This document shows positions 4,164 through 25,127 of a DNA stretch of 64,000 nt, piece after piece. The stretch comes from Verrucomicrobiaceae bacterium. Its GTDB lineage: Bacteria > Pseudomonadota > Gammaproteobacteria > Pseudomonadales > CAMLJR01. Within the stretch, counting starts at the first letter, position 1. Each line of letters opens with the position of its first letter. Where the stretch lies: the NCBI GenBank assembly GCA_028293825.1, contig JAQGNY010000027.1, positions 17,531-81,530 on the forward strand. Reading direction: 5' to 3'. Position numbers and translations under genes: made by a program. The notes beneath the pieces were generated by a model. The model had not been told where the DNA came from. It saw nothing but the letters and a program-made list of their open reading frames with translations, and did not search any database.

Positions 4164-4742
4164 TTATTCGCTCACTGGTTTGCTGGTCGTGCCCGGTTTG
4201 TTGGTGCTACCTGGCACTGTGACGCCGCCATTGCCGAGAAGTCGGTGCAAGCAGTTCTTCATTGTTTCCAATTCGCTTCGATCAAATCCCTGCAGATGCC
4301 GATTCATCACATTGATTGGTACCGCGGGTAGTTTTTCGACGAGCTGTTTGCCCGCGTCGCTCAGCTCGATATTGATAACGCGACGATCGTCCTGGCTGCG
4401 CACGCGGTTCACGATGCCTTTGGCTTCAAGACGATCGAGCATGCGAGTAATGGCGCCGGTATCGCCGCAGGTTTCACGCGCCAGGTCGGCAGCGGTCGAG
4501 CAATTGCACTCGGACAGAATCATCAGAATGCTAAATTGCTGATGGGTTAGGTCATAGCGAGACAGCTCTTGATCCAGTGCGTTGGAGAACATCGCCACGG
4601 TGCGTTTTAGCAAATAACCCAGACTCTCGCTGAGCCGGTAGCCCTCAAGCTGATAGAGGCCGGAAGGGTCTTCTATGCCGGCGCTGGGTAGATCAAGCTT
4701 GTCCATCAATTCTTCGATACCCATAGTTTGCTGCTCCAACAA
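4164..4742 (-). CDS. MarR-family transcriptional regulator, first gene of the efflux operon
   Basis: 192-aa ORF with a winged-helix core (LTHQQFSILMILSE...STAADLARETCGDTGAITRMLDRLEAKGIVNRVRSQDDRRV). Its stop is 2 nt from the OMF start. Confidence 0.85.
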   Translation of the reverse strand: MLEQQTMGIEELMDKLDLPSAGIEDPSGLYQLEGYRLSESLGYLLKRTVAMFSNALDQELSRYDLTHQQFSILMILSECNCSTAADLARETCGDTGAITRMLDRLEAKGIVNRVRSQDDRRVINIELSDAGKQLVEKLPAVPINVMNRHLQGFDRSELETMKNCLHRLLGNGGVTVPGSTNKPGTTSKPVSE

Positions 4743-4947
4743 TCACTGCTATGGCAGCAATATAGTTTGAGATAGCTGCCTAGGCAAGTATTTTTTGCGG
4801 CCGCAATTAATGTTGGGACGAGTTACGGCGACCTGAATCAAAGTAACTGGGCCGGAACAGTGGGGGAGAGCATAACGAGGCGAGGGTGCGAGCCCTCGTT
4901 AATCGATGGAGAAAGGAAAGCGACAAGAGCCTATGAAGCGAAAATAA

Positions 4948-5829
4948 TTACCGAGAAATAGCGGCGAGAAATCCATCAATGCCAGCTAAGCATTCCGGTT
5001 CATTCAGCAGCGGCGCATGGCCGCGATTAGCCACGATGAGTTGCTGTAAATTCGGGTTTTCGCCGGCCATTCGCTCGACGGTTTGCGCGCTGAGAATATC
5101 GGAATGTTCGCCACGAATGACCAGAATCGGAATTTGCGTAAGTTGAGCAAAAACGGGCCAGATATTTTGCGGCGCGGTAGCGGCTGCTCGTAACGCATCG
5201 CCAATTTTTGGATCGGAATCCGCTATCGGCACACCGTCCTCGCGCTCGCGAAAAGATTGTTTGGTGTAAGCCAGCCATTGCTCGTCGCTGAGGCCCGGTA
5301 GCGCGTGCTCGAATATCGAACGTACTTGCGCGGTGGCTTCCTGCCAGTTATGCACTGGCGGGATTTTGCCCGCGTATTTTGCGATTCGCGCGAGCCCGAC
5401 GGGATCGAGCTCTGGCCCTGCATCGTTAAGCACCAACCCTGCGATGCGCTGCGGTTGCTGCGAGCCCAGCAGCATTCCCATCAGTGCACCCATTGAGGTG
5501 CCGATCACAATTATTTTGTCGATGCGTAAAAAGTCGAGCAGTACCCACACGTCGTTTACGTAAGTGAGCGGATGATAGTTTTGCCAGATCGGATCGTAGG
5601 TAGAGCGACCGCGACCGCGCACATCCGGTGCGAGCACGCGATAGTCGCGCTGTAAGTGCCGTGCTAATTCAATAAAGTCACGGCTGTTTCGGGTCAGGCC
5701 GTGCAGACATAAAATTGTCGGCGCATTGCTGCGCGCGGTTTGAAAGTCGCGGCAAAAAAGCGTTAAGCCGTCGGCCGCTGGATAACTAAATTCAGTGATT
5801 GCGGAGTTCATAGCGAGGCGCCTCAGCAC
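4948..5829 (-). CDS. Alpha/beta-fold hydrolase
   Basis: 293-aa ORF with an HGLTRNSRDF oxyanion region, a nucleophile elbow GTSMGA (GxSxG) and a C-terminal His (NRGHAP). Confidence 0.8.
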   Translation of the reverse strand: MLRRLAMNSAITEFSYPAADGLTLFCRDFQTARSNAPTILCLHGLTRNSRDFIELARHLQRDYRVLAPDVRGRGRSTYDPIWQNYHPLTYVNDVWVLLDFLRIDKIIVIGTSMGALMGMLLGSQQPQRIAGLVLNDAGPELDPVGLARIAKYAGKIPPVHNWQEATAQVRSIFEHALPGLSDEQWLAYTKQSFREREDGVPIADSDPKIGDALRAAATAPQNIWPVFAQLTQIPILVIRGEHSDILSAQTVERMAGENPNLQQLIVANRGHAPLLNEPECLAGIDGFLAAISR

Positions 5830-12709: not shown

Positions 12710-15394
12710 TTAGTGTGAATTGGAAGCCGTTGTAGCTGGAGTAGTTTCAGCGGTGAACGGTTTAGCGCTACTAATTACCGACATAATTACCGCTGCGAAG
12801 TAGGGCAGCGATTGGATCGTGATAGTGATCAGCCACAGCCGCAAATCGCTCGCGGTTAAATTGTCTTGGCGGGTCAGCGCAATTCCGATGGCTGCGCCCC
12901 ATAGCAGAAGTGTCAGAATCGTTTCTTCGGATACGAGTAGCAGCGCGAACCACACCGATTCACGGTCCTTCATTTTCGGTGTACGCAAAAACGGTATCTT
13001 GCTAGTGAAAATGCCATACAACATCGCTTTCGAAATAACGTAGCTAAGCGCGAGTCCGGCCAGCGCCGCTTGCATCGTCGTGATTTGATCGGTGCCGACA
13101 CGTTTGCGATAAACGTAATACAGCTTCATTAATTTGAAAAAGAACAGCGCGAGCGGCGGTATGGCATAGACCGCGAGCGGTGGGTCGATATGTTTCGACA
13201 GAATCATCCCTGCCGACCACATCAGTGCGCCGAACGTAAAGAATAAATTCATCCCGTCAGCGACCCACGGCAACCAGCCAGCGACGAAGTGGTAGCGCTG
13301 ACCGAGCGTCAACCGCGTTTCGCCACCTAAAAATAACGGCCGTGCGTATTTGCGCATGATCTGCACGGCGCCATAAGCCCAGCGGAAACGCTGCTTGCGA
13401 TAGTCGATGAAGTTATCCGGGATTAATCCTTTGCCGTAGCTCTGTTCGATGTAAGCCGCTTCGTAGCCGGCATGGAATACGCGCAAGCCCAATTCGGCGT
13501 CTTCGGTAATGGTGTCTTCGCCCCAACCGCCTAAACTTTCCAGTGTTGTGCGCCGCACCATGGTCATGGTGCCGTGCTGAATAATCGCGTTGCGATCGTT
13601 GCGCGTAACCATGCCGATATGGAAGAAGCCCTGATATTCGGCGTAACACATTTTTTTGAACAGCGTTTCACCGCCGTCGCGATAATCCTGCGGCGCCTGC
13701 ACGATGGCGATATTCGGATTTTGAAAATGCGGCACCAGCGCGCTGAGCCAATCGGTATGCACTTGATAGTCGCTGTCGATTACCGCGATCACATCGGCAT
13801 CGGCAGCCGTATTGCGCAACGCGAAATTAAGTGCGCCGCCTTTAAAGCCTTCAAGCGGAGCGACGTGGAAGAAGCGATAACGCGGATCGTTTAATTGCGC
13901 ACAATATTCTTCGACTGGACGCCACACCGTTTCGTCTTTGGTGTTGTTGTCGATGATCAGTACTTCGTAATTTGCATAGCGCAAATTGCGCAGCGCATTA
14001 ATCGTTTCTATCACCATGTCGGGCGGTTCGTTGTAACAAGGCACGTGAATCGATACTTTCGGACGATAGCTGCTGTCGATATCTTCGGCCGGTCCGAACG
14101 GACGTTTACGCCGCATCACCCAAACCGCTTCGGCCCATTCGTGCGCTTCCACAAATAAAACCGTGGCGACGCCAATCGCGCTGAGCGACAAAATAATACC
14201 GAGAATAATAGTACCGGTGGACGCGTAGGGATCGAGTATCTGATACGCCATATACACCAGTGTCGACGTGGTGATAAATGCAACCGCAGCGAGAAAGCTA
14301 ACTGCGCGTCGACGCATATGTTGCGCGTCGACCAAAAACATCAGGAACGTAAGAATGCCGAGCGCAATCGTAATCGCAACCAATGTGCGCCATTCGGGGA
14401 TGGGTTGTAGCGGTCCCTTCAACGCAAATTTGGGTTGGCGGTCGGCGTTAAATACGCCCCAGTACGCACCGACCGCGCCTTCCTGTTTCATTTTCCAGGG
14501 CTGGTCGAATGCTTCCATGATGAAAAAATCGTAGTGATTTTTTTGCGCGAGCGGAAAAAAGTTTCGGAGGAATTTTCCTTCCAGTGCATCGGACGCTTGC
14601 GCCTGACCTTTCTCGCGGCCACGACTGGGCCAGCCTACTTCGGCAATTAAAATCGGTTTGTTTTTGTATTGGGGTTGTTCCTTCAATTTATTGTACGAAG
14701 CGGCGATATCGTCGTTCGCGTAATCGATGCCTTTACCGAGCCAGTACGGCAATAAATGCGCGCCGATAAAATCGACGCTGGCGCCGAGTGCTTTATTTTC
14801 CGGATGCTCGCCGGGTTTATCCTCGGTGAGCCAAAAATCCCAAGAGTCTGCAGTGGATGTTGGGATTTTGCGATTCACGCCTTCGCGCACGTAATTTATG
14901 TACGCAACCAGATCATCGCCGGTTAATTCTTCGCGCAGCAGTGTTTCGTTGCCGACGATGATGCGCTCGATATTGGTACTGCGATTGACGATTTCGATCA
15001 GCCGCTTCAACTCGACCATATTCTCTTCGCGGTTATCGGTCATCCATGCGCCGATCGTGACTTTGAGATTATGTTTCGCCGCGATGGCGGGAATGTCGCC
15101 GAGAATGCCAGCGACCGAATACGTGCGAATGTGCCGCGTGTGTTGCGATAGCAACGCTAAGTCTTCATCGATTTGTTCGGCGCTGGGATAATTTTTATCG
15201 ATGGGGCTTTGTCCGTTTCGATACGGCGAATAGGCAAAGCCGGATACTTCTTTCGGGAACGGTGCGACTTCTTCGGGGCGATTTAGCAAGCCCCACATGC
15301 CCAGCGTAATGGCGGACAAACTGAACAACACGAAAATAACGTGAAAGATATTGGTGAACGAGCGGGTGGGGTTCGCAGTGTCGACCATAAGCAT
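12710..15394 (-). CDS. ndvB: NdvB-like beta-glucan synthase: N-terminal GH17 domain fused to a membrane GT2 processive glycosyltransferase
   Basis: 894-aa ORF. GH17 hallmarks are IRTYS, VGNETLLR and AEVGWPSRG. GT2 hallmarks are VIDSDY (DxD), PQDYRDG and KQRFRWAYG (QxxRW). Several TM segments separate and follow the domains. Confidence 0.85.
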   Translation of the reverse strand: MLMVDTANPTRSFTNIFHVIFVLFSLSAITLGMWGLLNRPEEVAPFPKEVSGFAYSPYRNGQSPIDKNYPSAEQIDEDLALLSQHTRHIRTYSVAGILGDIPAIAAKHNLKVTIGAWMTDNREENMVELKRLIEIVNRSTNIERIIVGNETLLREELTGDDLVAYINYVREGVNRKIPTSTADSWDFWLTEDKPGEHPENKALGASVDFIGAHLLPYWLGKGIDYANDDIAASYNKLKEQPQYKNKPILIAEVGWPSRGREKGQAQASDALEGKFLRNFFPLAQKNHYDFFIMEAFDQPWKMKQEGAVGAYWGVFNADRQPKFALKGPLQPIPEWRTLVAITIALGILTFLMFLVDAQHMRRRAVSFLAAVAFITTSTLVYMAYQILDPYASTGTIILGIILSLSAIGVATVLFVEAHEWAEAVWVMRRKRPFGPAEDIDSSYRPKVSIHVPCYNEPPDMVIETINALRNLRYANYEVLIIDNNTKDETVWRPVEEYCAQLNDPRYRFFHVAPLEGFKGGALNFALRNTAADADVIAVIDSDYQVHTDWLSALVPHFQNPNIAIVQAPQDYRDGGETLFKKMCYAEYQGFFHIGMVTRNDRNAIIQHGTMTMVRRTTLESLGGWGEDTITEDAELGLRVFHAGYEAAYIEQSYGKGLIPDNFIDYRKQRFRWAYGAVQIMRKYARPLFLGGETRLTLGQRYHFVAGWLPWVADGMNLFFTFGALMWSAGMILSKHIDPPLAVYAIPPLALFFFKLMKLYYVYRKRVGTDQITTMQAALAGLALSYVISKAMLYGIFTSKIPFLRTPKMKDRESVWFALLLVSEETILTLLLWGAAIGIALTRQDNLTASDLRLWLITITIQSLPYFAAVIMSVISSAKPFTAETTPATTASNSH

Positions 15395-15490
15395 CCGATA
15401 AATTGAGGGTTACCCGTGAGGGCGTCATTCTAAGATAAAGTTCCAGGCCGTGACAGCGAGTTGCTGCACAGCCGGGCAGGATGCTGACAA

Positions 15491-16147
15491 CTATTCGATG
15501 TTAGCGGGTGCGGCGGTGGTTTTGTTTTTCAGCCATGCTATTGCGGCCGGCAGCAGCGACACAGCAATAATGACGAGGATTACAAGCGTTAAATTTTTCT
15601 TAATGAATGGAATGTTGCCGAAAAAATATCCAGCCAGCGATAGCGAAATAATCCACAGCAGCGCGCCGATAAAATTGAAAAATTGAAAACGCGCAACGCC
15701 CATCGATGAGATGCCGGCAATAAAAGGTGTAAATGTGCGCAGAATAGGCATGAAGCGCGTGATGACCAACGTTTTGCCGCCGTGCTTTTCGTAGAACTGA
15801 TGCGCACGATTTAACGCATCGCGATTGAAGAAACGTGAATTAGGCCACAAAAATACTTTCGGACCTAAATAACTGCCGATGGCGTAATTCACCGTGTTAC
15901 CGAGAATTGCCGCCGCGCATAACAGCAATATCAGCAGACCGATATTCATCGTGCCGGCAGCGGCAAATGCGCCCGCCACAAATAACAGCGAATCACCGGG
16001 TAAAAACGGCAAAACAACTAAGCCGGTTTCGCAAAAAATAATGAGAAATAAAATGGCGTACACCCAGATGCCATAATCGGCGATCACCTGTCCCAGCGTG
16101 GCATCGAGATGCAGCAACATATGTATCGCTTGCAGAATAAAATCCAT
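15491..16147 (-). CDS. DedA/VTT-family inner-membrane protein
   Basis: 218-aa polytopic ORF with the DedA signature region FLIIFCETGLVVLPFLPGDSLLF and ...GKTLVITRFMPILRTF. It lies upstream of, and on the same strand as, the ndvB-like gene. Confidence 0.85.
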   Translation of the reverse strand: MDFILQAIHMLLHLDATLGQVIADYGIWVYAILFLIIFCETGLVVLPFLPGDSLLFVAGAFAAAGTMNIGLLILLLCAAAILGNTVNYAIGSYLGPKVFLWPNSRFFNRDALNRAHQFYEKHGGKTLVITRFMPILRTFTPFIAGISSMGVARFQFFNFIGALLWIISLSLAGYFFGNIPFIKKNLTLVILVIIAVSLLPAAIAWLKNKTTAAPANIE

Positions 16148-16291
16148 TGGGAGCAGGCCTGCGGTGTGAGTTAAGGCGCGCCGACTTTACCGAGTTTTCG
16201 ATGACTGCGCTACCGCGAATGCTGGTACTGAGTTACGCCTTGCTGCTACGATGCGCGCGATCAAATTTTATCGTGTCGGTGCATATTCTCA

Positions 16292-17878
16292 GTGTCTTCT
16301 CGTTTTATTGTTCCCATTTATTTGCTTGCGCTCGCAGCGGTTATCGCAGCGCTGTACGGCTTTTGGGCGTATCAGGGGCGCACCGTGGTGCTACCTGAAA
16401 TCGCATCGGCCACGCATAAATTGCAATGCGTGTCGTACAGTCCGTTTGCGAAAGATCAATCGCCATTAGCGCCGTCGTTTGTTATTCGTCCCGAGCAAAT
16501 GGACGCGGATCTTGCGATTCTCGCGAAATATTTTTCGTGCGTGCGCACTTATTCGATGACCGGTTTAGAACAGCTGCCGGTTTATGCTCAAAAGCATGGC
16601 CTGAAGGTAATGCTCGGTGCGTGGGTGGGCTCGGACCCGGTATCGACGAAATTGGAAATCGATCAGTTAATTGCTGCGGCCAATCGCTATCCCGACGTGG
16701 TGCAGTCGGTGATCGTCGGCAATGAGGCATTGCTGCGCAAAGATATTTCCGGTGCACGTTTGGCCGAGCTGATCACGCAAGTTAAAAGTCAGGTGCACCA
16801 GCCAGTGACTTACGCCGATGTGTGGGAGTTTTGGGATAAGAATCCCGAAGTAGCACCGGCAGTCGATTTCATCACCATTCATTTATTGCCGTATTGGGAA
16901 GATGAGCCTTCCAGCATCGACCGCGCGCTCGATCACGTTGCCAATATTCGCGAAGACTTTGGTCGGCGGTTTTCGCCAAAAGATATTTTAATTGGCGAGA
17001 CCGGTTGGCCGAGCGAAGGCCGTCAGCGCGAAACCGCTCGCACCGGACGTATCAATCAGGCGAAATTCATTCGCGGATTTGTCGCGATGGCTGAGCATAA
17101 CGGCTGGGATTACAACTTGATCGAGGCCTTCGATCAGCCATGGAAGCGTGTTAATGAAGGCGCGGTCGGCGGTTACTGGGGCTTGTTCGATGCCGACCGG
17201 CAAGACAAGCAGGTGCTTGCAGGACCGGTTTCGGATTTATCGAATTGGCAGTCTTGGCTACAAATCTCGGCTGCAATCGGGGTTTTGACGTTAATTGTTG
17301 TCGGTGTGCCGCAGCGACCTGGAACAGCCGTATTGGGGCCGTTGTTCGCACTGATCGGTTCGATTGGCATTGCGCTGTGGTGGCAGCAGGCGGTTAACGA
17401 CAACCGCGATATATGGGAGTGGCTGTGGACCGCCGCGCTGACGTTGCTCAATATCGTGATATTGGTGCGCACTGCGCTGGCGTTGGCACCACTTGATTCG
17501 GCGCGCGGCCGTGTGTTTGTGCGGCTCGAACAATACGCCGGTAAAATTTTGCTATGCAGCGGTTTCATCGGTGCGGTATTGACGCTGCAGTTGGTGTTTG
17601 ATGCGCGCTACCGCGAATTTCCCAGTTACATAATGCTGGTGCCGGCTCTGGGTTTCTTGCGTTGGCCGGCACACGCCGCAGTGCGCGAGTTGAAATTGTT
17701 GCTAGCGATTATTGCGCTGGGAATTCCGCTGCAATTACTCGAAGAGAAATTAACAAATACTCAGGCGCTGGGTTGGGCTGCGGTATCGGCGTTATTAGCG
17801 CTGGCGTTGTGGCGCTCATTGCGCACCAGCCGCAGTCCGGCAATCAGCAGTGCGAATACCGCCAGCGTCACTGTATAA
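16292..17878 (+). CDS. NdvC-like GH17 domain protein with a C-terminal polytopic membrane domain (beta-glucan branching/transglycosylase type)
   Basis: 528-aa ORF with a GTG start. It has an N-terminal TM segment, GH17 motifs VRTYSM, VGNEALLR and IGETGWPSEG, then about 5 TM segments. It is divergent from dedA-ndvB. Confidence 0.75.
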   Translation: MSSRFIVPIYLLALAAVIAALYGFWAYQGRTVVLPEIASATHKLQCVSYSPFAKDQSPLAPSFVIRPEQMDADLAILAKYFSCVRTYSMTGLEQLPVYAQKHGLKVMLGAWVGSDPVSTKLEIDQLIAAANRYPDVVQSVIVGNEALLRKDISGARLAELITQVKSQVHQPVTYADVWEFWDKNPEVAPAVDFITIHLLPYWEDEPSSIDRALDHVANIREDFGRRFSPKDILIGETGWPSEGRQRETARTGRINQAKFIRGFVAMAEHNGWDYNLIEAFDQPWKRVNEGAVGGYWGLFDADRQDKQVLAGPVSDLSNWQSWLQISAAIGVLTLIVVGVPQRPGTAVLGPLFALIGSIGIALWWQQAVNDNRDIWEWLWTAALTLLNIVILVRTALALAPLDSARGRVFVRLEQYAGKILLCSGFIGAVLTLQLVFDARYREFPSYIMLVPALGFLRWPAHAAVRELKLLLAIIALGIPLQLLEEKLTNTQALGWAAVSALLALALWRSLRTSRSPAISSANTASVTV

Positions 17879-18248: not shown

Positions 18249-20138
18249 TTAGACGTCGAATTGATCTTTTATTTTCCAGCCCGTTGGCGGGCTTTCCCAG
18301 CGCGTATTCGGATCGATATGATCGCGCGCGATAAAGTAAGCGTGCAATTTATCGTCGGTTAATTCGAAGCGCAAAAATCCTTTGTAATCCTGAATTGCCA
18401 TCGCGCTGAAGGCGTTGTTCGGCATCTGTCCAAAATACGACGCTACCGCGAAATAACTTCCGAACAGCAATCCGCCGACACCGACGCCGCAAACAGTGAC
18501 AAACAGCCACGCGCAACAACTGGCGAGGAATGGATGCTGAGCGGCGAGCGGTGCGGCCAGCATGCAGCCCAGCCAATACAGCGCAAACACCAAATAGCCG
18601 TGCGCCATACCGTGCAAAAAGCCGGTGGTTGTTTTGATCCACGCTGCAGTCGGGCCTTCACTGGCGATGCGCACGCATCCCGCCAGCATGACCAAATTAA
18701 TAATTAGCGCAGTGGGCGCGAAGATCATCGCGTGTAGCCATTTCAGCATCGCATCGACATAGCCGAAGTTCGCCATCGGGCCGAAACCATCGGGAATGAA
18801 GCTGTACGAGAAAACTAACGAGTTCACGTAAGCGTTGAAGCCATAGAGTAGGCCGAGAAAAAGCGCGAAGCCGAAATTCGAATCGAGCCATTGCGCAAAA
18901 AACTCGCCGCTTCCGAGAGCGGGGCGCGGCTGACTGAACTGCGGTTTGAACATCGCGCCGATATTGCCCCATGCGAGCGAGCGCGATTTCTCCACCGATG
19001 GATAGCGTATGCGGGCGGCATTGAAAGCGCTGGTATCGACGTCGGCATCCGCCACGCGTCCGACGCGAATGCGGTGTTGCAATTCAGGGCTGATCGCGGC
19101 GGGATCGATCTGGCGATCGATTAATTTGCTGGCGGCGGTGTCGCGGCAATGCGTTGGGTGCATGAACGCGCCGCCCGCGCCGCAGGTGATCAGATGGCTC
19201 GCTTGCGCGGTGGTGGGGTCTTTGTCGAGCGTATCGCGCGAATAGTGATGTTGATCGCCCGCAAGCCGCATCGCGATACGCGCGCCGCTTTGCTCGAGCA
19301 GATACTCCAGCCGTTGATACCGTTTTGGGTAGCCGTCGGGCGCCGCATCGCCCAGTTCGCGATACCAATAGGGCTCCGGGTACAGCAGGATTAGCTGCGC
19401 TCCGGTGGTAATTTGCGGTGTTGGCGTCGATGTACCCGTGGCTTTTACTTCTGCGGTAGTCGGGGTGCCGAGCAGCGCGCGAAAGGCTTCGAATTGATTG
19501 CGGTCGATATCGCCGCCGAGTGCGTAATCGAAACCCAACACCCACCAGTTATGCGGCAGTTTTACGGCGAAATAGGTTTGTTTTTGCGGCGTTTTCGCGC
19601 CGATAAATTCGCCGCTATCGCGATTGACGAAGTAGCGGCAGAACGTCGATAGGCTGTCGAACCAATCGTGGTTTTGCGGAATGGAGACCGTTACTTTTTC
19701 GCTGGTATCGACGCGCGCGTGCCGCTTCGCCATTTCATATAGTTCGAGAAATCGGTATTGATACTCTTCGGGGCTGGCGCCGGGGTAGGCGAGATCGCCG
19801 CCCAAAACCAGCAGCTGGCCAGTCGGTAGCGTTTTCGCCGGGCTGTTCGCCACGTGCAGTTCCGGTTCCAACGCCGCACGCGCGACGCTGTAAGTAGCGC
19901 TGCCGCTGTCGCCGACATCGGAAATAAAATCGAACCAGAACGGTTGCGTATTGTTAGCCGGGAGCGCGGATAAATCGATGACATCCACCGCTGAGAAGTT
20001 TTCGCGGCGGTCGAGATTGCGTTGAAAGTCAGTCGAGGAGAGCAGTTCACGTCCGGCGTGCAGCAAAACCGACGGCGAATACCACGCCACCGAGCGGCGG
20101 CTGCTGGGTTGAACGAGCTGACCGAATTGCTTAGCCAT
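18249..20138 (-). CDS. Calcineurin-like metallophosphoesterase fused to a C-terminal polytopic membrane domain
   Basis: Metallophosphatase motifs appear in order: FISDVGD, GGDLAYPG, QNHDWFD, LAGDQHHY, GAGGAFMHPTH. About 6 TM helices follow. I prefer the ATG at 20138 (MAKQFGQ); the ORF track begins at a GTG at 20162. Confidence 0.75.
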   Translation of the reverse strand: MAKQFGQLVQPSSRRSVAWYSPSVLLHAGRELLSSTDFQRNLDRRENFSAVDVIDLSALPANNTQPFWFDFISDVGDSGSATYSVARAALEPELHVANSPAKTLPTGQLLVLGGDLAYPGASPEEYQYRFLELYEMAKRHARVDTSEKVTVSIPQNHDWFDSLSTFCRYFVNRDSGEFIGAKTPQKQTYFAVKLPHNWWVLGFDYALGGDIDRNQFEAFRALLGTPTTAEVKATGTSTPTPQITTGAQLILLYPEPYWYRELGDAAPDGYPKRYQRLEYLLEQSGARIAMRLAGDQHHYSRDTLDKDPTTAQASHLITCGAGGAFMHPTHCRDTAASKLIDRQIDPAAISPELQHRIRVGRVADADVDTSAFNAARIRYPSVEKSRSLAWGNIGAMFKPQFSQPRPALGSGEFFAQWLDSNFGFALFLGLLYGFNAYVNSLVFSYSFIPDGFGPMANFGYVDAMLKWLHAMIFAPTALIINLVMLAGCVRIASEGPTAAWIKTTTGFLHGMAHGYLVFALYWLGCMLAAPLAAQHPFLASCCAWLFVTVCGVGVGGLLFGSYFAVASYFGQMPNNAFSAMAIQDYKGFLRFELTDDKLHAYFIARDHIDPNTRWESPPTGWKIKDQFDV

Positions 20139-20204
20139 AAACGCGCATCCTGTGCTCGTCACGCGTCGCCGAAGCGCTGCGCGAATAGATCAAGTGGGAT
20201 TAGA

Positions 20205-23297: not shown

Positions 23298-23753
23298 GTG
23301 GCTGAAAAACTTCCGACACGCATTCCAACGCCCTGTATCGGTGTCTGTTCGACAGGCATCGGCGATAACGTGTGCCGTGGCTGCAAGCGCTACGCGGCGG
23401 AAGTGATTTATTGGAACAGCTACACGGAAGAGCAAAAACGCGCGATCAATCGGCGCCTCGATCAACTGCTGTCGCAGGTGGTCGCGGCGAAAGCGACGGT
23501 GTTCGACGCGGCGCTACTCGAATCTAAATTAAAAGCATTGCAGCTGCAGTATTCGCCGCATCGCAGCCCACTGGTGTGGGTATTCGAGCTATTGCGCGCC
23601 GGCGCGCGCCAGATCGTCGATACGACGCAATTCGGTTTTGCGCTGGAGCCCGCTTACAAAGACATCAATTTGCTGACTTTGCGCGACCAGATCGATCAGG
23701 AGTTCTTCCTGTTGTCCGAAGCGCATTACCAACGCTATGTCGGTGTGGTTTAA
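23298..23753 (+). CDS. DUF1289 (YdhL-like) cysteine-motif protein
   Basis: 151-aa ORF with a GTG start. The N-terminal motif is PCIGVCSTGIGDNVCRGCKRYAAEVIYWN, typical of DUF1289. It is divergent from acnB. Confidence 0.7.
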   Translation: MAEKLPTRIPTPCIGVCSTGIGDNVCRGCKRYAAEVIYWNSYTEEQKRAINRRLDQLLSQVVAAKATVFDAALLESKLKALQLQYSPHRSPLVWVFELLRAGARQIVDTTQFGFALEPAYKDINLLTLRDQIDQEFFLLSEAHYQRYVGVV

Positions 23754-23983
23754 GCAGCGGCCCTGCGCCGGCGGTGAGGCGTCGGTTTACAGCGATACAC
23801 CGCATGTCGGATTCCGAATGCCGACAATCCAGTAGAGCTGTTCTCTTCGCACCCGTTAGCGCTCTCAATCGCCGATTGAATTCTCTGAGCTTGAATTCCT
23901 TTCGTCGTACTGGACCAAAAAGTGGCCGTCGGCCGCGCTATTTAAGTAATTTTGGTAGAGCACAGTCAGGCCGAGCTGCTGTT

Positions 23984-24256
23984 GAGCGAGAAAAAGCAGG
24001 CTCGAAGCGAGGAAGAGCTAGCTCCGAGGGAGAAAAAACTATCTCTTTGATAGAAAAAGCTGTCTGCGGGATAGGACGAGCTAGCTCGGAGATAGATAAA
24101 TCTATCCCAGAGAGAGATAAATCTATCCCAGAGAGAGATAAATCTATCACCGGGATAGATAAAGCTATCTCCCACAGAGAAAAAGCTATCCCGTGAATAG
24201 ATCGAGCTAGTTCGGATGGAGCTAAAGCTAGCTGAGCGATAGCTCGCCGCATCTTT
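23984..24256. repeat. Tandem array of 13 units of 21 nt, each with an internal palindrome
   Basis: Read directly from the sequence. The units start at 23984 and recur every 21 nt through 24236. U6-U8 are nearly identical (gagatagataaatctatccca, gagagagataaatctatccca, gagagagataaatctatcacc). The consensus is GAGATAGAWAAAKCTATCYCN, and there are no indels between units. Confidence 0.9.
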
Positions 24257-24506
24257 TGGAGACGACGTCGAGTCTGTTAGCGAGGAGTAGCTCCGGTTGA
24301 AGCGGGTACGGTTGTCGCCACGATAGACGCGCCTATTGCGCGATATTCCCATCATCGCTTTTGCTTTGGACGAGCCAGCTGCGAACGAGCAGTCGCTCGT
24401 TTTAAACGGGGCGGCGGTAACTCCGCACGGAGCCGGCTCTTTTCGCGAATAAACTCACCCATCGTTATACTGCGCGCCGATTCATTCCGTGACAGTCGTT
24501 TCTCCC

Positions 24507-25127
24507 ATGACCGATATCTCCGCCATTCAGAAGTTTCTGTTGTGTCCGACGCCGGATGCATGGCTGCAAAATGCACTCGCGCAGCAGGATTTATTGCTGA
24601 TCGATCACGCCAATTGCGAGAAAAAAGCGGCCGGTACCGCGATGAATTTGCTGTACCGCTACGTCGACAAACCCGATTTGCTCTATCGCATGTCGCGGTT
24701 GGCGCGCGAAGAGTTGCGGCATTTCGAGCAGGTGCTATCGATCATGGCGGCGCGCGGCATCGAGTATGTGCAGACCGCGCCAGCCCGTTATGCCGGCACC
24801 TTGCACAAACATGTGCGCACGTTCGAGCCGGCTAAATTGATCGACACATTGATCATCGGCGCGTTTATCGAGGCGCGCTCGTGCGAGCGGTTTGCGCGAC
24901 TGGCGCCGTTATTGGATGACGAATTGAGTCGGTTTTATACGGGCTTATTGAGTTCCGAATCGCGCCATTTTCAGCATTATTTGCAGTTGGCGCAGCGCTA
25001 TGCCGATAAACCGATTGCCGAGCGCGTGGCGTTTTTTGCCGAGCGCGAACGCGAATTGATCGAAGCGGAAGATGTTGAGTTTCGTTTTCACAGCGGGCCG
25101 GTCGCGGCCGTCGTTGATGCACTGTAG
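24507..25127 (+). CDS. miaE: tRNA-(ms2io6A37) hydroxylase, ferritin-like di-iron family
   Basis: The translation MTDISAIQKFLLCPTPDAWLQNALAQQDLLLIDHANCEKKAAGTAMNLL...EELRHFEQV...EARSCERF...ESRHF matches the MiaE layout with its ExxH di-iron motifs. The ORF track begins at a GTG at 24489; I prefer the ATG at 24507. Confidence 0.85.
   Translation: MTDISAIQKFLLCPTPDAWLQNALAQQDLLLIDHANCEKKAAGTAMNLLYRYVDKPDLLYRMSRLAREELRHFEQVLSIMAARGIEYVQTAPARYAGTLHKHVRTFEPAKLIDTLIIGAFIEARSCERFARLAPLLDDELSRFYTGLLSSESRHFQHYLQLAQRYADKPIAERVAFFAERERELIEAEDVEFRFHSGPVAAVVDAL

Follow-up and report, generated by a model that had tools for sequence, protein, structure and literature searches.

A 21-bp tandem array upstream of miaE as a candidate decaying minisatellite of predicted curved DNA

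Copy-number variation among strains is the defining trait of variable-number tandem repeats (VNTRs), and such loci are used for typing in multiple-locus VNTR analysis (MLVA). It is also established that phased A-tracts bend DNA and that curved DNA occurs upstream of bacterial promoters. Further tandem arrays have been described: sopC of the F plasmid, which comprises 12 direct 43-bp repeats, SopB binding to the 16-bp inverted repeat that each of them contains (PMC3177203), and BrickBuilt, a MITE (miniature inverted-repeat transposable element) found in Porphyromonas gingivalis, which combines tandem repeats of 23 nt with leader and tail segments, is always intergenic and occurs 19 times in a genome (PMC4596501). 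Here we analyze an array of 21-nt units found at positions 23984-24256 of a 64-kb stretch of contig JAQGNY010000027.1 (the whole stretch is referred to as the window), between a DUF1289 gene and the tRNA hydroxylase gene miaE. The array most likely belongs to a known kind, the bacterial minisatellite, with strict conservation of the phase as its one notable feature. The reading that we favor, and to which we assign about an even chance, is that of a lineage-specific, decaying, non-coding minisatellite that forms curved DNA upstream of miaE and was possibly seeded by a heptad-coding repeat.

Structure of the array and phasing of its A-tracts

Read directly, the array is arranged head to tail with a strict 21-nt period and zero indels in 273 nt. 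Cutting from 23984 in 21-nt steps yields 13 units, of which U1-U12 are solid and U13 is marginal, being identical to the remaining units at 6-11/21 positions. The original prediction of 13 indel-free units is thus borne out for the register, the listing of the units and the absence of indels, and only marginally for the thirteenth unit. The consensus unit is GAGAGAGATAAAGCTATCTCG, and substitutions relative to it affect 3-11 of 21 positions per unit. The seven positions that had been described as almost invariant are so by their per-column counts: A6 and G7 occur in 13/13 units, A12, C14 and C18 in 12/13, and T15 and A16 in 11/13. Units U6-U8 share 18-20/21 positions with each other and similarity drops toward each edge, in agreement with the described near-identical center and decaying edges; U6-U9 is the part amplified most recently. 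The GC content of the array is 46%, compared with 52% for the window.

The same period was recovered by computation. Self-identity of the array reached 0.65 at lag 21, 0.64 at lag 42 and 0.61 at lag 63, with every other lag at or below 0.44; Tandem Repeats Finder (TRF) called period 21 at 23985-24037 and 24089-24192; and a repeat search returned 10 gap-free copies spaced 21 nt, with one 42-nt step. In the 64-kb window, the core GATAGATAAATCTATC was matched 10 times versus 0.27 expected, nine of the ten matches being inside the array, and the two-unit pattern AG....A.CTA.C(N8)AG....A.CTA.C was matched 13 times, always within the array, versus 0.00 expected in shuffles. No further copies of the unit were found in the window by pattern and repeat searches, as had been stated from the sequence. 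The array is a real and rare feature, far beyond chance, and with a period of 21 in 12-13 units it lies within the range of tandem units (about 10-100 bp) by which minisatellites are recognized.

In wider collections, BLASTN of positions 23760-24500 against plasmids and phages gave no match. The specific two-unit core pattern had no match in IMG/VR viral contigs, and a loose three-unit pattern of the invariant positions retrieved there generic 21-nt repeats only and no close relative of the unit. Five matches of the specific pattern from JGI metagenomes were rejected as relatives: they come from one eukaryote-like, satellite-rich contig family with a 27-nt repeat. In this family (L124, positions 4636-4980, and also L125-L128), satellites and (CA)n runs accompany a 27-nt array of TATAGATAAACCTATCGGTAGATAWCT, the core of which most likely resembles the dyad of our units (see below) by chance.

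In run SRR13312995, two Logan contigs (k=31) are 100% identical to the window, one half of the array each way, and end within U7. An assembly artefact was rejected, as two different assemblies agree at 100% across both halves. The copy number within the near-identical U6-U8 block is uncertain, because the Logan contigs break inside U7.

The most pronounced physical property of the array concerns its A-tracts. There is one A-tract per 21 bp, that is, per two helical turns, which places the AA/TT steps in helical phase. The AA/TT vector sum at 10.5 bp is 24-27 over the array, whereas its median is 4.7 and its 99th percentile 13.4; all ten of the highest-scoring AA/TT-phase windows in the 64 kb overlap the array, which is the most strongly phased A-tract segment of the window. 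This test is parameter-free and was run to back a wedge model, in which the ratio of end-to-end to contour length is 0.32-0.52 in the array versus a median of 0.94, values that are indicative only. The array is accordingly modelled, and predicted, as strongly curved DNA. Such curvature follows automatically from the repeat and is therefore no evidence of function.

These observations are compatible with the following course of events. A 21-bp seed would have been amplified head to tail via replication slippage or unequal recombination, within an orphan spacer of about 700 bp at the structurally variable spot that separates miaE from the DUF1289 gene. The center, where U6-U9 are nearly identical, would still be turning over, and the edge units would be decaying through point substitution. 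The seed may have derived from a coding heptad repeat (ERDKAIS, plus-strand frame 0), in which case the dyad symmetry of the units would be a consequence of codon choice (GAT/ATC, AGA/TCT). As its main physical effect, the array would provide a slightly AT-rich stretch of about 250 bp with intrinsic curvature, approximately 210-480 bp upstream of the conserved miaE promoter, and it would probably lack a dedicated function. No test for a specific function was clearly positive, and nothing shows a regulatory device.

The DUF1289-miaE locus and its variation among relatives

The gap between the DUF1289 gene and miaE extends over 23754-24506 (753 nt), which confirms the predicted gene-free gap of about 750 nt, and both flanking genes are identified by Pfam (Table 1). 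Other genes in the surroundings are acnB, lpxH, ppiB, glnS and cysS. The gene order acnB-DUF1289-miaE is widely conserved and the length of the DUF1289-miaE gap is variable: it measures 50-130 nt in the more distant relatives Zhongshania, Spongiibacter and HTCC2143, and in Pseudomonas it amounts to 1-3 kb occupied by other genes. Homology to relatives ends at the DUF1289 stop codon and returns about 45 nt before the miaE ATG. The TATACTG motif in this returning segment is shared unchanged by four loci, namely the window, L003, L084 and L085, the sequence upstream of it being different, and is probably the -10 element of miaE.

The closest relatives carry in the gap a two-gene cassette, which encodes a ~615-aa HExxH lipoprotein and a 161-189-aa lipoprotein, neither of them with a Pfam family. 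The presence of this cassette in relatives and its absence from the window mark the gap as a hotspot of gene gain and loss. The array was considered as a remnant of the cassette, and this was rejected, as both TBLASTN and BLASTN were negative.

As to its conservation next to miaE or the DUF1289 gene, a question that had been raised with the original prediction, no array was found at the locus among 80 miaE loci from GTDB species genomes and the contexts of the closest DUF1289 homologues. The closest relatives, at 81-85% protein identity, are without the array segment, and no comparable feature was found in about 600 kb of related loci. The only period-21 repeat upstream of miaE in these loci, that of L003, was rejected as an orthologous array, as it is a coding repeat in a lipoprotein gene and its similarity is non-significant. 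This repeat (L003, positions 953-1008; QREELGA QRKQLEA QREQDGA) belongs to the small lipoprotein gene of the closest relative, which thus has a coding 21-nt repeat of its own.

Unrelated short tandem repeats are found just upstream of miaE in three further loci: 14 nt x 3.7 in L008 (3854-3905), 15 nt x 3.5 in L046 (3355-3406) and 13/26 nt x 4 in L009 (3472-3532). Tandem duplication just upstream of miaE seems to be recurrent across lineages.

Table 1. Coordinates of the array, of its flanking features and of the cassette found in relatives (window positions unless a locus is named).
Feature	Coordinates	Strand	Evidence or remark
DUF1289 gene (YdhL-like Fe-S protein), left flank	23298..23753	+	Pfam E 2.3e-16
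Orphan spacer, homology with related loci undetectable	23754..24461	.	All six frames score non-coding
ORF of 104 aa, spans the array almost exactly	24252-23938	-	
ORF of 129 aa	24355-23966	-	
U1-U12, solid 21-bp units, indel-free	23984..24235	.	Sequence read, TRF, repeat search, self-identity
Homogeneous core U6-U9	24089..24172	.	7+2+7 dyad GATAGAT-AA-ATCTATC or near variant
U13, decayed marginal unit	24236..24256	.	Holds ATG of the 104-aa minus-strand ORF
Weak terminator-like hairpin, between array and miaE promoter	24385..24404	+	AACGAGC / GCTCGTT, 4-nt loop, then T run
TATACT	24467..24472	+	Within TATACTG motif ~30 nt before miaE ATG
miaE (tRNA hydroxylase), right flank	24507..25127	+	Pfam E 1.8e-78
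Two-gene cassette in relatives	L084 3470-5823; L085 952-3266; L003 14-1359; L083 1340-1462		

The best matches of MiaE, AcnB and the DUF1289 protein are in Spongiibacteraceae/Cellvibrionales, with a top MiaE identity of 85%; judged from these sequences, the NCBI name "Verrucomicrobiaceae" of the source metagenome-assembled genome is probably a binning or labelling error, the source being an uncultured, Spongiibacteraceae-like marine gammaproteobacterium. Elsewhere in the window, a 637-aa open reading frame (ORF) without a Pfam match at E<=1e-5 adjoins acnB (18249-20162, minus strand), and positions 12710-17878 encode an 894-aa glycosyltransferase family 2/GH17-like fusion, a VTT-domain protein and a second GH17-like protein, which suggests a beta-glucan synthesis cluster.

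Alternative explanations

The array could be a platform on which a dimeric DNA-binding protein assembles in phase, in the manner of a centromere, iteron set, operator or decoy; 7+2+7 dyads spaced by two turns would recruit successive dimers to a single face of the curved DNA. We consider this unlikely. It is suggested by the dyad units at strict 21-bp spacing without indels, by the fact that the core bases of the dyad are the best conserved ones, by the strong A-tract phasing and predicted curvature, and by an architecture similar to that of F-plasmid sopC (PMC3177203). As geometry, the dyad symmetry and the two-turn phasing put forward in the original prediction were both confirmed. The palindromes are nevertheless unevenly distributed. 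Exact dyads are present in U6 and U9 (GATAGATAAAKCTATC) and in U2 and U5 (GAGCTAGCTC), the inverted repeat is approximate in U4, U7, U8, U11 and U12, and U1, U3, U10 and U13 do not fit, so that the stated presence of one or the other inverted repeat in every unit is exact for the first two pairs, approximate for five units, and wrong for the rest. The 7+2+7 dyad itself is exact in U6 and U9 and approximate in U4, U7 and U8, the other units having a dyad shifted by 5 bp or none; good dyads are limited to U6-U9, with an approximate one in U4. The centers of the two forms, at unit positions 10.5 and 15.5, are separated by 5 bp, which amounts to about half a helical turn. Being 5 bp out of register, they lie on opposite faces of the helix, and the GAGCTAGCTC units would not face the same side as the others, contrary to what had been proposed for all palindromes.

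Covariation between the arms is no better than relatedness alone gives. Pairing in the 7-bp dyad is found in 65.9% of cells versus 62.5% in column shuffles, and the covariation score was matched or exceeded in 12/500 shuffles; there is no covariation beyond the consensus palindrome, and by the calibration of the method related sequences reach such values without constraint. There is no par, rep or regulator gene within ~7 kb, the nearest regulators being a GntR/aminotransferase fusion at 31.5 kb and MarR at 39.4 kb. No related array was found in any collection searched, and relatives do without the array. With the two forms 5 bp off register, weak covariation and no partition, replication or regulator gene nearby, cooperative phased binding by a dimeric protein is unsupported. 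A more specific version, in which the indel-free array is a sopC-like or decoy-like chromosomal platform with dyads on curved DNA for a dimeric or nucleoid-associated protein and no adjacent partner gene, appears quite unlikely. Against a partition centromere speaks the lack of adjacent parA/parB or parM/parR, the neighbors being acnB, the DUF1289 gene, miaE, lpxH, ppiB, glnS and cysS; for an iteron replication origin there is no rep gene nearby, and the GC content of the array is 46% versus 52% in the window.

The reading of the array as a heptad protein deserved more weight than the original prediction gave it. The array would then be a present or very recent plus-strand gene for an ERDKAIS-type coiled coil, or would encode a small repeat protein in an open minus-strand frame. 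The period is divisible by three and indels are absent; the consensus translates in plus-strand frame 0 exactly to ERDKAIS, a heptad common in coiled-coil proteins; and heptad position 4 is K/R in 13/13 units and position 5 is A/S/T in 12/13. HMMER with plus frame 0 identified 35 proteins at E<1e-3 (best 2e-15), all of them with tandem heptads such as ERDKAIS, ERDKAFG, ERDTAIT and QRDQAIS. These matches are of low complexity and confined to the array, the matched proteins are mutually unrelated outside the repeat, and no match extends into the flanks of the array; the similarity is therefore one of repeat type and no proof of homology.

A protein of 313-320 aa that contains 6-7 NEEKAIQ heptads is encoded on the minus strand of low-GC viral contigs from IMG/VR (L101, 7179-8120; L118, 3075-4037). 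The corresponding DNA unit, AATGAAGAAAAAGCTATCCAA, is identical to U10 at 15/21 positions and is truly coding, which demonstrates that DNA units of this kind can be so. Moreover, since GAT (D) and ATC (I) as well as AGA (R) and TCT (S) are reverse complements, the dyad symmetry of the array is a possible by-product of codon choice, and for the same reason a minus-strand frame reads DRFIS.

Present-day coding is not supported by the sequence. Three frames had been predicted to stay open through the array; two minus-strand frames do, and one of the resulting ORFs (104 aa) nearly coincides with the array, but plus frame 0 is interrupted by TGA in U11 and U12. As predicted, there is no start context or ribosome-binding site for plus frame 0, and no Shine-Dalgarno sequence precedes either minus-strand ATG. 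Per-codon log-odds of the six array frames range from -0.19 to -1.08, non-coding scores throughout, versus a mean of +0.31 and a 1st percentile of +0.04 for genes of the window. Plus frame 0 relies on some of the rarest codons, AGA, ATA and TCT accounting for 1.5%, 6.9% and 4.8% of the Arg, Ile and Ser codons in this genome, respectively. In this frame, differences from the consensus are distributed over codon positions 1, 2 and 3 as 22:28:22; second positions vary most, third positions are not the variable ones and include the invariant A6, and the invariant G7 is a first position. The ORFs are not called in any source, a collection of 15 billion proteins lacks their exact sequences, no homologues were found for the minus-strand ORFs of 104 aa and 129 aa, and Pfam gave no match for the three array ORFs. 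We therefore rate a present or very recent gene as decidedly unlikely; judged from the same sequences, a heptad-coding origin of the seed is plausible.

That the array acts as a structured RNA, namely a small RNA, a protein sponge or, if DUF1289 and miaE are co-transcribed, an intercistronic stabilizer, is very unlikely. Both strands fold better than shuffles (z = -4.2 and -5.4), the plus strand has a weak terminator-like hairpin downstream, and read-through into the array seems plausible, as there is no clear terminator after the DUF1289 gene. Good folding of both strands is, however, expected of any quasi-palindromic tandem array, and the terminator scan returned one weak site, no more than shuffles give. 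The favored fold is one long imperfect rod (~-103 kcal/mol) with no repeated hairpins; local-only folding with a hairpin per unit attains no more than -55 to -59 kcal/mol, and the values for individual units lie between 0 and -7.4 kcal/mol. The predicted chain of about 12 short hairpins was not recovered, the unit hairpins being weak and uneven and the local fold (-59 kcal/mol) falling short of the long-range one. No Rfam family, Csr/Rsm sponges included, matched at gathering score, the sub-threshold matches being to eukaryotic microRNA and small nucleolar RNA models only; a scan for sigma-70-like promoters found none; and covariation is lacking. The array is no recognizable RNA gene today.

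Equally improbable is that the orphan segment of about 700 bp represents a non-autonomous mobile element of low copy number that encloses a minisatellite, similar to the BrickBuilt MITE. An orphan insertion at a variable intergenic spot, with leader, array and tail, would fit such an element, and at the density of BrickBuilt (19 per genome) a single copy in 64 kb would be unsurprising. Neither terminal inverted repeats nor a target-site duplication above chance were found at the ends, however, the sole flanking direct repeat being a chance-level 7-mer, and a second copy is absent from the window and from the plasmid, phage, IMG/VR and JGI collections. Further candidates do not match: repetitive extragenic palindromic (REP) elements or bacterial interspersed mosaic elements (BIMEs), as within the 64 kb there are no dispersed palindromic copies outside the array; clustered regularly interspaced short palindromic repeats (CRISPR), as the units abut without spacers, both in line with the original prediction; and a ToxI-like type III toxin-antitoxin system, as the downstream gene encodes MiaE (Table 1) and not a toxin.

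Several points weigh against a decaying minisatellite without a dedicated function. There are zero indels in 273 nt although the units differ from the consensus at 3-11/21 positions, and this lack of indels hints at a constraint on the phase. The best-conserved bases, A6, G7, C14 and T15, form the core of the dyad. The two open minus-strand frames occur singly in 0.8% and 10.5% of column permutations and jointly in 0.06%; we discounted this significance, as the recent duplication of U6-U8 and the pyrimidine richness of the minus strand inflate the null. Given the tendency of bacteria to lose DNA that serves no purpose, it is mildly surprising that a decayed array of 270 bp has been retained. 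Finally, the array is known from one strain, and the search for extra copies in the source genome covered 64 kb only.

In summary, a decaying, non-coding minisatellite with predicted curvature is the reading that we retain, and as such the array is a clean example of how a minisatellite emerges in a bacterial genome at an intergenic hotspot of variation. It also illustrates the fragmentation of short-read assemblies by such repeats and the way in which reverse-complement codon pairs (GAT/ATC, AGA/TCT) can create a palindromic appearance. Were the 21-bp phase under selection, the array would represent a rare chromosomal phased multi-site array building a nucleoprotein structure or, alternatively, curved DNA acting on miaE at a distance. 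The dyad is defined well enough to fish for a partner protein.

Comparison with known systems

The array resembles sopC in its number of tandem units, about a dozen, and in the 16-bp dyad (7-bp arms) seen in part of them. It differs from sopC in its period (21 bp versus 43 bp), in its location in a chromosomal housekeeping region with no sopA/sopB-like genes nearby, and in that a good dyad is present in only about one third of the units; there is no sequence similarity between the two. With BrickBuilt it shares the intergenic location, the spacer-free arrangement, a similar unit length and a non-repeat leader and tail, but it has no inverted-repeat ends, no further copies have been seen, the organism is unrelated and the sequences are not similar.

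In relation to the coding heptad repeats ERDKAIS, ERDKAFG and NEEKAIQ (P0151, P0140; L101, L118), the consensus translates exactly to ERDKAIS. Those repeats lie within intact genes, whereas the array is interrupted by stops, lacks a start, uses foreign codons and shows no bias toward third positions. The array is also similar to the A-tract curved DNA upstream of bacterial promoters, its A-tracts recurring in helical phase, but it is located more than 200 bp from the likely -10 element of miaE, farther than the classical upstream curved elements. Finally, although intergenic minisatellites and VNTRs do not typically require dyad symmetry or a strict lack of indels, and the array has been seen in one strain, it is like these loci in its head-to-tail units, its position in a non-coding gap, its homogeneous center with degenerate edges, and the breaking of short-read assemblies inside it.

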